A DNA stretch of 64,000 bases from contig JAUCBJ010008128.1 in NCBI GenBank assembly GCA_032718475.1, positions 1 through 64,000 on the forward strand, written 5' to 3'. Shown one piece after another: positions 5,410-40,954 of this stretch. The DNA comes from Nemertoderma westbladi (Eukaryota; Animalia; Xenacoelomorpha). The position numbers and the translations under genes are program-made. Position 1 is the first letter of the stretch; the number at the start of each line of letters is the position of its first letter. The notes beneath the pieces were generated by a model. That model was not told the DNA's origin and did no database searches. It saw nothing but the letters and a program-made list of their open reading frames with translations.

Positions 5410-6479
5410 TGTTCGCGCTTTCAGACCTTTGGCAGTTTAACCCGCCAAATTAGGATGTCTTCTAGATAATAAATCACCTTTAGCCTATGACAAGTATTTA
5501 ATTCACTACACTAGTCGAAACCAATCTGTGCGCGATCATTCACCCGTTGGATATACCCGGGAGATTGGGTTCGACGGCTTAATTTTATTGCTATGTAAGC
5601 CTAATGTATTATTCGACTGACAGTATTATATAATCTCTGACAATATTATTCACCTTCGGGAAATATTAACAGTTCCTTTAGGACGTGGCGCTCTATCTAT
5701 ATAAACAGAGTTATGACTTAAACTACTCACAACGATATGGCTTAGTTACAATTCACATATATGGCGCATTCTTTAGGAAATGCTTCGTTATCAGTCTCAC
5801 TCATACACAATGCTGCACAATACTGCACACTGATCTGCCGATCTTCACTGATTTTAGTCACATATAAAAGGAACACGGACCGAATCATGTAGGGTCTATC
5901 AAATAACATTAGATTCACTTCAAACCACTCAACATAGGTCGCAATCATTTATCTGTAACCTTTCTCTCTTACCTTCGGTATATCAAGAATATTGGGTTTT
6001 CGGGGTTATTTGTCGTTATTCCAAATATAATAATTCATCAACCATATTATGAAGAACTGACAGTAAATAGCAGTATAACAATATAAAAGTATGCACAGTG
6101 TTACACAGTATGCAGTGTATGCAGTACTGCAGTATGCAGTATGCAGATAACGGATATATGTCCTTATAATTAAGCCTACTAGTGTAGGACTAAAAACTGA
6201 ACAACGAGAGAACAAAGAAACAAAGAAACGTCGACGTGGCAATATCAGCTGCTAGCCGTCGTCATGGTAGCGACACTGTTTTCAAGAGTATCGAGCTTTT
6301 ACGTCACGGAATTACGGATTATGTCCTCTAAAGTACAAATACAGAAGAAATAGCTTTTATGTCCGCTAAAACACCAGTACAGCAAGGACACGGCCTTTTT
6401 ATGCCTGGTAAACCAACTACAGAGTATTTACGGGAAAAATAAGGAAAAATAACCGGACAATTCAGCAAAAGCTTTTACA
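5410..6479 (-). repeat. 3' LTR of B1 (1070 bp)
   Basis: TG...CA termini; near-identical to 17662-18588. Confidence 0.95.
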
Positions 6480-9400
6480 CCACTCCCAGAAAATGGGATT
6501 TTCAGTCTATAAAATATAAAAATCACAGTTTCTAAAACATAAAGATACTCTAAACAGTTAGTTTCTTTGCGCGGACGGCGTTTACGCAGTTTCTTGAGGC
6601 TAGCAAGAGTCCTTTTCTCTTTGGGGGAGCCACTTTACTAGGAGGGCTATAAATCCTGGGTGAAGGGTGCAATATGATTGCATCAGAAGGTGTAGGATTA
6701 TGGTCGGGGTATCCGCCGTTTCGATATGCTTCTCCTCGAGCTGATTTTCCTCCGCTCGTAGCTGGATACGTTCATCCAAAAACTCTCGCAGAGAATGGGG
6801 TTGTCTAAGTGCGATATCTTCTTAGAGATTCTGGATTTCACAATCGAACTGAGATAAAGACAATTCGTTTATCGCTTGGACTTGCTGTTATAACTTACGT
6901 TTATCTGAACAAACGTAGGTTTCCTTTCTGATCTTTGTAGAATAGCGTTTAACTCGTTTGGTACAACGTTCTCCGCCACTCTGGTGACAGGTTATATCGT
7001 GTCAAGCCGGGACGATGGTAAGGGTTAAACGGCGATATTAAATGTCTGCGTCACAATCCGGCTAGGTAAGATGGGCGGCTAGCTAGAAATCACTGTCGGA
7101 GTGTTACCGATTAATTGTTAGGGTAGCACTAGATCTTTGAACAGTGAATACAGTCCGCGAGGATCCGCGACACCACCAGGATCGCAGGTCTGAGGTCCAA
7201 CTAAGGAATGAGGAGGTTTGACCGAGTATTCCGGGACTCTGATCGTAGGTTTACTCCAGGATCGTTCGAGCCGAGTGAGCATAGGTGATACGTCAACAAG
7301 TTTCGGTTTCCGTGGATGTTTATGTCTTTCCGTTTATTAGTTGGGTCTAGGGCATTTATCGTAATAATACCAAAGACGCACGTCTGGTAAGGTAAACGCG
7401 GGTGATATTTATTTGTTGTTACAATGCTTCTATCAAGAATTCCAAATATACGTTGGAGTTACCGCGTCCATTTGTTTCTTTAGTGTCTTTTCTTTCGAGT
7501 CGATTTCGAATAGAATTTTCGCATTCGAATTTCAGTTTATGGTTCCGACTCCGCTGGGCAGGATATATAGTCGACATAGTCCGTATTGTGTAAATCGATA
7601 GGATGACCAGTAGTTAAGAAGCCCATATACGTACCATTACGCTGCGTATATCGAGCAGCGAATTTTCTATAGTCCAACTCACGCGTGAGCTGCTCTTGGG
7701 ACATTGGCGGTTCGATATAACGACCATCGTCCTCCGCAGCAGTTGGACTAACGTCGCCGCGTATTAAGCTATCAACAAACGCTTGTAAAAGTAGAGTATA
7801 TCACTCCCCGATACCAAGACCATCTTCTATCAACTCCGTCATATCTGCTATATATGAGTTTATCCATATTATAATGAGTTTATATTTAGGCGAGCGGGCG
7901 TCGCTGCCTATCCCAATCAACCCCCGGACAGTACGAGATCCTCAGCGCCGATGTGTCGTCGCCGCTGTACTTTCGCCAACGACGTAGCCGCACAACGACA
8001 ACGACAACCGGCACAAGTCACTCGACTGTCCGTCCCAAAGGCTTAGATGTACTTCAGGTTTTCCTTGGAGAGTTAGGTTACTTTTACGATTGCGACTAGC
8101 TACTGTAAACACACCTTAGCAGTAACATTCACCTATAAACTCACAAATACCACACAACTGGTCACAACTACGCACATTCGGGCCATTTGTCCGTTAGTCA
8201 ATGCCTTCCAGAATGTCACTGTATTATTATGCATCCTTGGGTACTAGTAGTGCGCTATTTATTCCCTATGCTATTCAATGGGACAAGCTTTCTATTGTTC
8301 GTTTAACTCAATTCTAATTCTAGCGTGGTTGTTGCTATGGTGACATTATGCAAGGCTAGCGGTAGAATTAGGGTAATTCCAATACATACAGATCTGGGAT
8401 GTTATTTAATAGTATTCTTTAATAGTCAATGTTCTGTTTTATACATGACTCTATGAATTTTATCGGCTATTGACTATGTTTGGGAGACTTTCGCACACTC
8501 ATATGCATAATAAGATAAATCTCCGCTCCCTTGATCTATTAATTAATGGAATTTTGGGAATGTTATAAATTGCGTAAAAATGGCAATTTATTAAATTCAT
8601 TAAAAGGCATGAATTTAAATTTATTCCCTGAAATTTTATTATTTGATAATTAAATGGACATATTTTGATTCTAGAACATGTCTGGGGACACAAGATCCTT
8701 AATTCTATGACAATTGTCTTTTTAAGAATATCGGTAAATGCTACGATATCTTAATTGACTAGAATTGTTGAAGGATCTGAATTTTACAGATTTTGACTTA
8801 TTAAATTTGCAAATATTAAATAATTAATATTTGAGATGGGCACCAATTTATTCCAGAACTTGTCTGGGGACGTTGACCACTGATTCTAGAATTTGTCTTT
8901 CAAGTATATCGGTGGGTGCCGCGATATCTTAATCGACTAGAATGACAGATGGTCAAAGGGTTTAACAGATTTATTTTGCGTTATACGCTACTGTTAAAGG
9001 GACATCACGCTACTATATGTATTATTTAATATACGGTATGAGAGCAATATCGCACGAAGCAATGTCAGTGTGAAGAGGCAAGTCGTTTCCAAGGTCTACC
9101 CAGAGCTTGGTTTAGCCGAGACACGAGGATCTGAACTTTGCATTCCTAATACTCTGCCTACCAATAATACTTAAATATAGTAGTGGCTTTATTGTACTTT
9201 AATAAGTACGGACATTTCATCTTACTGTAGTCACGTATTTATAATATGATACGGACAGTAAGGAAAGAGGAAAAGAATTATTTCTTGCCGTCGCATTAAA
9301 TATAATATATACGTAATTAAGTAATAAACGCGAATATATATTGCACTAATCTACTAAATAATCGCTAAAATAACATTCTACTGAATAAAATTAAAGAAAA

Positions 9401-9494
9401 CGATTATAATAAAATTACATAGTAATACATACAGAAATATAAAAATAATAAAATAATATAAAATAATAGAGTCACACACCCACTCCATATGTTG

Positions 9495-39146: not shown

Positions 39147-39600
39147 ACTAGCAGGCAATACCCGAGGCATGTTACCCGGTATTTCCCGCTACCGGCATAT
39201 GCCTACTGGCGTACTGGTACCGGTATAGGCCTACTGACGTACCGGTACCCAGTACCGGTACCGAACGTGAAGAGAGAGAGAGAGAGAGAGAGAGAGAGAG
39301 AGAGAGAGAGAGAGAGAGAGAGAGAGAGAGAGAGAGAGAGAGAGAGAGAGAGAGAGAGAGAGAGAGAGAGAGAGAGAGAGAGAGAGAGAGTCTAGCTTGA
39401 GAGACTAGCTTGTTTGTCCCTCTGAGGTGGTTTAACCTCTCACCTCTCTCTGTGGCTTATGGCGTGTATCGCCCCAGTTGGTTATGAGGTGGGATTATTA
39501 TTGGTAATCTCACATCGCCAACTATATTGGTAAAATGCCACTAATCCTATTTTCGGTGGGTAATAAACGGAATTGAATCCGCTTACATGAGCTCTAGATT
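39147..39600 (+). mobile_element. Possible DINE-1/HINE-like (Helentron-derived) element containing the (AG)n tract
   Basis: Starts ACTAG...CCCGAGGCATGTTACCCGG and has an internal microsatellite; boundaries uncertain. Confidence 0.35.
39270..39390. repeat. (AG)n microsatellite, ~120 bp
   Basis: Direct reading. Confidence 0.97.
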
Positions 39601-40945
39601 AACAGACTTTGGCGAATAAAAATTGTATGCACTCAAAAATTGGTCTAATTGTCAGTGGCTCTTGAGGGACGTAGATCCTACTAAAGCCATTTTCGTCACA
39701 GTAGCTATTCACTAATACTGTAGGCTACAAATTAATAATTATTATGTTAATATTTGTAAAAGCTTTTGCGGATATACTCAGTCCCCCTCGCCCGCAAGGT
39801 ACCGTTATAGGTGTTTTAACGGACATAAAAGTCATTCTTCTATATGTGTGCTTTGGTGGACATGGTAAGGCAAAAAACCCGCAATGCGTCAAATACCCTG
39901 GCACAGCTTAGCCTTGATGATTCAGATTACGACATCTAACAGCTGGTTGCTGACATGGAAACGGCCATTGGACACATGGTTCTTTGTTTAGCTTAACAGC
40001 CAATCAGAGCGATTTTTTCTGTCGATGTGGAGATATTTGGCAGATCATGCTAGGAGTGTTCAGTCTTACTGTTTTTTCTTGATACTGTTGTGTTGTTTCT
40101 ATCTAGGCCAGGAACACCGGCTCTAGAGTCAATTCGTTTCAGACTTTAGAAGAAACATTAGTAGGCTTAAGATTATAGAGCGTATAACTGTTATCATAAC
40201 ACAACTCACATAACATATCACATAACTTGTCATATCATATCTTAACCTACCATCTTAATGCTTTTTACTGTTGTCATATTTTGTATCAGTTGGTTGAATA
40301 TTATTTGGAGAACATTTATAAAGAACCCAAATTTCCCAATTTTCTTGATACACTACAGGTTAGAGAGACAGGTTACATATAGCGATTGCGACTTATATTA
40401 TTGTGGTTTGTAGTGAATTTAATGCTATTTGATAAGCACTACATGAGTCAGTTGCTGTTCTCTTTATATATGATAAAATTCATTGACGGTCGGCAAATTA
40501 GTGAGTATTGTGTGTTACCGGTAGTGTGCATGATTGTGACTGATAACTAAGCATTTCCTAAAGAATGCGCCTCATACGTGAATCATAAGCCTTACCGACT
40601 TACCGTTGTGATTGGTATAAGTCATATCTCTGTTTACCTAGATAGAGCGCTACGTCCTAAAGGAACTGTTAATATTTCCCGAAAGTGAATAATATTGGTC
40701 AGAAATTATTTATTAGCGATCAATCGAATAATACAGTAAGCTTACACTGCAATAATAATCTAAGCCCTCAGAATCCAGTCTCCCGGGTATATCCAGCGGG
40801 TGAATGGACGCGCACTAGGCTGGCTTCTGCTAATGTTGTGTTTATTGGTATTAGATACTTGTCATTTTCTAAAGTCTATTTATAAACCAAAAGACATATA
40901 AATTTTGGCAGGTTAAACTGCTAAAGGTCTTCAAAAGCGCGTACA

Positions 40946-40954
40946 ATAACAGTT
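40946..40954 (+). promoter_or_regulatory. Non-tRNA primer-binding site of B2 (candidate self-priming site)
   Basis: ATAACAGTT flush with the LTR; complement AACTGTTAT at 40186-40194, at the position homologous to the B1 site. Confidence 0.7.

Follow-up and report, generated by a model that had tools for sequence, protein, structure and literature searches.

Organization of the locus

The window analyzed here is a 64,000-nucleotide stretch of the Nemertoderma westbladi genome (GenBank assembly GCA_032718475.1, contig JAUCBJ010008128.1, positions 1 to 64,000). Self-alignment of the window revealed nested long terminal repeat (LTR) retrotransposons (Table 1). Family A occupies 2469-25875; B1, a copy of family B, is inserted within it on the minus strand (18588-5410), and a second copy, B2, lies separately downstream. 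In both families, the PBS (primer binding site) is not of the tRNA type and pairs with a segment of the element's own LTR. The pairing is real and exceeds chance, it recurs from one family to another, and it conflicts with the official description of the BEL/Pao family. Both B1 and B2 are defective, and we consider it probable that the BEL/Pao family from which they derive primes itself from an LTR site in the R region instead of from a tRNA.

Table 1. Features of families A and B in the window (positions in the 64,000-nt stretch).
Feature	Position	Strand	Remarks
Family A 5′ LTR	2469..3009	+	541 bp; BEL/Pao-type host element of B1
Family A LTR site	2786..2819	+	2811-2819 complements PBS 3010-3018; 2786-2798 complements leader 3031-3043
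Family A PBS and second helix arm	3010..3043	+	no TGG
Family A 3′ LTR	25317..25875	+	559 bp
B1 3′ LTR	5410..6479	-	1070 bp, TG..CA, complete; holds the complementary site
B1 LTR site	6147..6159	-	LTR 321-333; exact PBS complement; predicted self-primer
B1 purine tract	6480..6490	-	short; likely polypurine tract, upstream of 3′ LTR; assigned from sequence
B1 open frame	9495..14441	-	1648 aa; BEL/Pao Gag, protease, then C-terminal part of RNase H
Non-LTR (RVT_1) fragment	15173..16309	-	inserted in B1 leader, outside the priming signal
B1 9-bp hairpin	17621..17645	-	directly 3′ of PBS
B1 PBS	17649..17661	-	flush with 5′ LTR, no TGG
B1 5′ LTR	17662..18588	-	927 bp
B2 5′ LTR	39755..40945	+	1191 bp
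B2 LTR site	40182..40194	+	homologous to B1 site; 40186-40194 is a perfect 9-nt complement
Second complement of B2 PBS	40663..40671	+	perfect, 9 nt, PBS nt 2-10; the surrounding block is the same in B1
B2 PBS	40946..40958	+	flush with LTR, no TGG
B2 9-bp hairpin	40959..40981	+	directly 3′ of PBS; kept, letters differ from B1
B2 Gag fragment	44352..46230	+	stops at start of DUF1759; remainder of B2 absent

B1 and family A carry the TG..CA LTR ends and the 4-6 bp target-site duplication (TSD) typical of BEL/Pao. The TSD of B1 is GGGGG (5 bp, at 5405-5409 and 18589-18593), and that of family A, whose LTRs are 96% identical, is GCATC. The B1 5′ LTR lacks 143 bp, including the complementary site, with the break near 18345-18351. 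Since the two B1 LTRs are otherwise ~99% identical, this loss probably took place after insertion. The B2 LTR shares 78% identity with that of B1 over the 3′ 600 bp, and the first 250-400 bp align poorly.

The Gag and protease of B1 are of the BEL/Pao type. The frame contains DUF1759 (E 1.8e-12), and three Cys-His knuckles and a protease could be read from the translation; PF05380 (Pao family) was present in all 11 protein relatives found. Aligned to these relatives, B1 passes from residue ~865 straight to ~1450; some 585 aa, including the reverse transcriptase (RT) and most of RNase H, are gone, and the comparison gave no integrase match. Of the RT, RNase H and integrase expected in Gypsy-like order, B1 thus lacks RT and integrase, and B2 ends within Gag. 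The protein matches of family A were limited to Gag and protease, with no RT found. Judged by these matches, B1, B2 and A are non-autonomous BEL/Pao derivatives. We also note that the ~585-aa loss in B1 is in frame and the 1648-aa frame (9495-14441) is free of stops; possibly, selection has kept a fusion of Gag and protease in this non-autonomous family. The alternative of a fungal Tf1/sushi element wrongly labelled BEL/Pao was considered and rejected, as the protein matches are to BEL/Pao, and no proteins of the Gypsy/chromovirus type were found in B.

PBS-LTR complementarity

The 13 nt flush with the B1 5′ LTR, ATAACGGATATAT (17661-17649), are the exact complement of 6147-6159 (13/13). In B2, the PBS ATAACAGTT (40946-40954) complements 40186-40194, and local alignments place the two LTR sites as homologous behind a common TAGTAGGCTTAA block. 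Over 13 positions, B2 forms nine Watson-Crick pairs, one mismatch, one further Watson-Crick pair and two G-U pairs, which gives 12/13 paired. Four PBS changes and three site changes separate B1 from B2, and changes on both sides occur at pair 6 (G-C to A-U) and pair 8 (A-U to U-A). An earlier note on this DNA had reported the 13-nt complement in B1, and its letters and coordinates are right; its statement that pairing persists in B2 through two both-side changes at a homologous site also holds, as does its observation that neither copy has a TGG-type PBS (TGG is absent from the first 6 nt of both).

The B1 match is far above chance: when the LTR was shuffled by dinucleotides, 3 of 20,000 shuffles reached 13, and the PBS is the sole position among 11,152 internal ones with a complement of at least 13. 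When changes were placed at random in simulations, two or more both-side changes arose with p 0.024-0.050, and two or more with 12/13 still paired with p 0.003-0.015. Family B combines two features of Tf1-type self-priming: PBS-LTR complementarity without a tRNA site, and pairing kept through both-side changes (in 2/13 pairs, between two copies). A paper that covers the TAR lineage (PMC6317226) used a threshold of 10 bp or more, with the match beginning 0-5 bp behind the LTR. B1 (13) and an element from outside the window, L005 (11), reach this length, and B2 and A (9 perfect pairs each) fall below it.

Family A presents a related, bipartite arrangement, in which 9 bp and 13 bp are separated by a 12x12 loop. 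None of 200 shuffles was as stable over the 36-nt window, compared with 77/200 over 18 nt, and 79 of 20,000 shuffles reached the 9-nt complement of the PBS. Pairing begins, in all of B1, B2 and A, at the first base after the CA of the LTR, where the 3′ end of a primer must sit.

Each PBS fits its own LTR best, with 13 nt against 7 and 5 in the other LTRs for B1, 9 against 6 and 5 for B2, and 9 against 4 and 5 for A. In terms of duplex energy, the B1 PBS reached -18.6 kcal/mol with its own site and -12.7 with that of B2; the B2 PBS reached -12.0 with its own site and -9.6 with that of B1, meaning that the B2 site binds the B1 PBS no less stably than its own. The PBS letters differ among B1, B2, A and two outside elements, L005 and L007, and in each case match the element's own LTR, which would not be expected from a conserved host tRNA.

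BEL/Pao elements outside the window

Scanning prokaryote genomes with a four-protein alignment returned ten BEL/Pao loci, presumably host-animal DNA in prokaryote assemblies; five were scanned for domains and all had Pao domains. Four of the ten (L005, L006, L007 and L010) could be tested for the signature. Five (L003, L004, L009, L011, L012) had no usable LTR-PBS junction, and L008 had a non-TGG junction with an incomplete LTR.

L005 has identical 320-bp LTRs, a TSD and an 11-nt contiguous LTR partner 4 nt after the LTR (1/1000 shuffles), with a duplex that extends to -25.1 kcal/mol. L007 has identical 770-bp LTRs with no TSD seen and pairs over 8 contiguous nt; 11 nt pair only across a predicted GTGAGT..polypyrimidine-CAG junction (0/1000 shuffles). 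The predicted intron spans LTR positions 382-719 (locus 7498-8268), and its removal would build the 11-nt PBS partner directly before AATAAA. No splice-junction partner with canonical signals was found in B1, B2 or A. L010, in contrast to these, has a TGG-type PBS and no LTR partner (best 5 nt; 921/1000). This element (9213-15273) has identical 195-bp LTRs and a TSD, and lies within a Wolbachia chromosome assembly.

In an RT-RNase H tree of 13 rows, L005, L006, L007 and L008 fell in a seven-row clade (100/100), apart from L010. The tree did not include B1 and A, which have no RT, or P0003, P0009, P0011, L003 and L004, in which the motif was not located. The best protein scores of B1 were with P0001, L007 and L008 (79-72 bits), versus 51 for L010, at an identity of only 21-25%, which suggests that B1 may belong with the clade of L005-L008. 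As a separate observation, positions 1-80 of L008 resemble family A at window positions 2990-3020, with GGATCC..CA and then GTAA at the LTR end and PBS start.

Position of the RNA start

Motif scans located an initiator-like TCAGT upstream of the site in B1 (41 nt), A (66-71 nt) and B2 (122 nt). In the L007 LTR, TATAAATA occurs at 139 and 159, ahead of the donor at 382, so the site built over the predicted splice junction would lie ~220 nt downstream of its TATA boxes. AATAAA follows the site at LTR position 891 in B1 and 728 in L007. With initiator-like motifs upstream and AATAAA downstream, RNA synthesis probably starts upstream of the site, unlike in Tf1, and the site would lie within R and not at the cap.

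The earlier note had proposed Tf1-like priming in a BEL/Pao lineage, with transcription starting at or just upstream of the site. The BEL/Pao identity stands, and priming by the element's own RNA is still the best reading. That transcription begins exactly on the first base of the site is doubtful, because the 13-bp helix of family A extends upstream of it, the L007 site would be assembled by splicing, and the initiator-like motifs lie upstream.

Proposed mode of priming

BEL/Pao identity, absence of a tRNA-type PBS, pairing kept between B1 and B2, and recurrence of the signature in family A and in two of the four outside elements together make the element's own RNA the best candidate for the primer. 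That such RNA serves, by whichever route, we regard as quite likely. In our model, transcription would start upstream of the site, thus placing it in R. The RNA would fold back over ~740 nt of R-U5 so that the site anneals to the PBS, and RNase H, belonging to an RT that an autonomous partner provides in trans (B1 lacks one), would cut at the 3′ end of the site, by analogy with Tf1. The new 3′-OH would then be extended from the LTR edge into minus strong-stop DNA, which would jump to the long 3′ R. Since the primer would be copied into the PBS during plus-strand synthesis, this mechanism would by itself produce matched changes. The B1 5′ LTR having probably lost its site after insertion, this particular copy would be unable to prime in cis.

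Several observations weigh against this model. The main counter-sign is TATAAG at position 312 of the B1 LTR, 9 nt before the site; if it acts as a TATA box, the RNA start falls just downstream of the site. The pattern is unmatched in B2. Moreover, B1 has the site only in its 3′ LTR, and the 5′ LTR adjacent to the PBS lacks it. B2 taken alone is weak: 255 of 20,000 shuffles reached 9, complements of 9 occur at 28/5,255 of its internal positions, and its 18-nt PBS window is no better than shuffles by duplex energy (78/200). The B2 PBS also has a rival partner, the perfect 9 nt at 40663-40671, and the fold of the whole 866-nt B2 region did not form the PBS-site duplex. Likewise, the single-strand fold of A gave its PBS partners other than the 9-nt site. 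Covariation within B comes from two copies only, and PBS offsets vary among elements (0, 0, 0, 4 and 1 nt, the 4 being L005). L006 has a non-TGG junction with neither a contiguous nor a spliced partner (best 5 nt), although its LTR end was deduced from a collapsed contig. Finally, the RNA start, the cleavage and the primer in B are all deduced from sequence.

Read contigs covering the B2 LTR came from four sequencing runs (9,833, 4,978, 2,480 and 61 contigs) and were short and unphased. None of the 32 substitution rows (at least 5%) fell within the 26 nt of the B2 site and PBS, which is uninformative as ~1 was expected. An extra A after 40954, present in five contigs (~9% of depth, unphased), would add a pair with a B2-type site. 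Skips in the contigs of run X4, guessed to be RNA, had no GT-AG ends. A metagenome scan with a 19-nt LTR motif returned two loci, both rejected as chance matches, and two scans of viral contigs gave no relative.

Alternative explanations

The closest alternative also has the element's own RNA as primer, supplied by the 3′ R copy, a dimer partner RNA or a short LTR-derived RNA that is cut or trimmed at the PBS, and we consider it unlikely, though less so than the others. The site is present in both LTRs and thus also near the RNA 3′ end (2811 and 25677 in A), it directly precedes AATAAA in L007, and B1 retains it in the 3′ LTR only. Such a route would also avoid the cis loop of ~740 nt in B, which the B2 fold left unclosed. 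Against it, the B1 site lies 558 nt upstream of AATAAA and so not at the RNA 3′ end, the deletion in B1 is best read as post-insertion given the ~99% identity of its LTRs elsewhere, and the 5′ copy is the one used in Tf1, the sole proven case.

Only marginally less probable is a structural role for the duplex, i.e., in 5′-3′ circularization, dimerization, packaging or a translation switch, with priming by some other route. Additional helices do flank the PBS (the 13 bp of A and the hairpin of B), the cores of the B2 and A sites are palindromic, and the TATA-like motif could place the B1 site in U3. This explanation leaves the absence of any tRNA site unaccounted for, and gives no reason why the helices of B1, B2 and A should all start at the base next to the LTR, or why L010, with its TGG-type PBS, should have none.

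It is improbable that the primer is a small host RNA, whether a tRNA half, a tRNA fragment or another kind, with the LTR site as a copy captured from it. Half-tRNA priming does exist in Ty1/copia lineages (PMC6317226), yet B1 and B2, copies in the same genome, differ at 4/13 PBS positions, the PBS is entirely different from family to family, with the LTR of each following suit, and no tRNA or Rfam gene was found within the window. Chance, or an old functionless inverted duplication, is largely refuted and very improbable: 9-nt matches are common in this AT-rich sequence (28/5,255 positions in B2, 32/9,089 internal positions in A), but not a 13/13 match unique to the PBS position in B1, both-side changes, and recurrence in A, L005 and L007.

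Other features of the window

A 287-bp tandem duplication is common to the B1 and B2 leaders (16802-17380 and 41423-42002), and in B2 a 38-bp unit is additionally repeated 6.4 times at 41007-41248. The hairpin behind the PBS of B was missed by a two-sequence consensus fold, in which the two-row alignment was gapped. The family A leader contains three copies of the PBS module (3010, 3046 and 3074; window 3010-3113), of which the first and third include the second arm of the helix. Downstream of its truncated protease, family A has a second frame (23125-24513; 462 aa) that is Cys/His-rich and has no Pfam match.

Two 97% identical fragments of one non-LTR retrotransposon lie at 15173-16309, in the B1 leader, and at 27160-28004. 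Long minisatellites based on a 21-bp unit, with strong strand skew, occupy 29900-35215 within a 1419-aa open frame. A 624-aa frame at 50844-52718 has a zinc-finger-like N-terminus and no Pfam match under E 0.1; by eye, its motifs recall a tyrosine recombinase. It adjoins a satellite made of ~192 copies of a 57-bp unit (52702-64000), which also shows a higher-order periodicity of ~301 bp.

Comparison with known systems and implications

The international committee for virus taxonomy (ICTV) describes Belpaoviridae as primed by host tRNA, with an 18-nt PBS complementary to tRNA-Arg or tRNA-Gly, and their replication as poorly understood (PMC8742986). Family B shares with them LTRs, a TSD, a Gag with DUF1759 and three Cys-His knuckles, a protease, and the C-terminal motif of RNase H. 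It differs in that a tRNA-type PBS is absent from both B and A, with no TGG 0-5 nt from the LTR in B1, B2 or A, and in that B1 has no RT. B is thus a BEL/Pao derivative that departs from the family description at the PBS.

Self-priming has been described for Tf1/sushi, Tcn1 and TAR elements (PMC6317226), and in Tf1 the primer consists of the first 11 bases, cut free by RNase H (PMC7175516). Like B, the Ty3/gypsy elements Tf1 and Tf2 of S. pombe, Tj1 of S. japonicus, and the Tf1/sushi and Tcn1 groups have no tRNA PBS, and a stretch of 9-13 nt behind the LTR pairs with part of it (PMC7175516, PMC4600332, PMC6317226). In contrast to the Tf1 group, B has BEL/Pao proteins, some 740 nt separate its site from the PBS, its RNA probably begins upstream of the site and not on it, and cleavage in B is proposed by analogy. 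Relatives, moreover, extend the duplex (A, L005) or would build it across a predicted splice junction (L007). In the TAR lineage (Houba, Osr-1) of Ty1/copia, self-priming was likewise predicted from complementarity; these are plant copia elements with another domain order. Fungal GalEa copia elements and bivalve TRIMs also lack a canonical PBS and have a 9-bp leader hairpin (PMC6934838), but their inverted repeat lies within the internal domain, whereas the PBS of B pairs with the LTR and its hairpin is extra.

Our literature searches found no paper on BEL/Pao self-priming, although subscription papers, Repbase or GyDB entries and supplements could hold an earlier remark. In excerpts of the BEL/Pao diversity papers PMC554778, PMC3118150, PMC6238403 and PMC8556966, the terms PBS, tRNA and self-priming led to nothing relevant. 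We also drew on PMC5341516 and PMC8220671.

More broadly, and with slightly less than even confidence, we suggest that a non-insect BEL/Pao clade dropped tRNA priming and primes from an R-internal segment well downstream of the cap, cut from a long bipartite duplex and sometimes assembled by splicing. This would be an independent origin in a third LTR superfamily, unlike the first-11-bases rule of Tf1. The reading names the exact RNA ends to look for. If true, it would explain why PBS-dependent annotation misses such elements, and the prediction would follow that tRNA fragments do not silence them. All three superfamilies of LTR retrotransposons would then include self-priming elements, which bears on whether tRNA or hairpin priming came first, a question discussed in PMC3601003.

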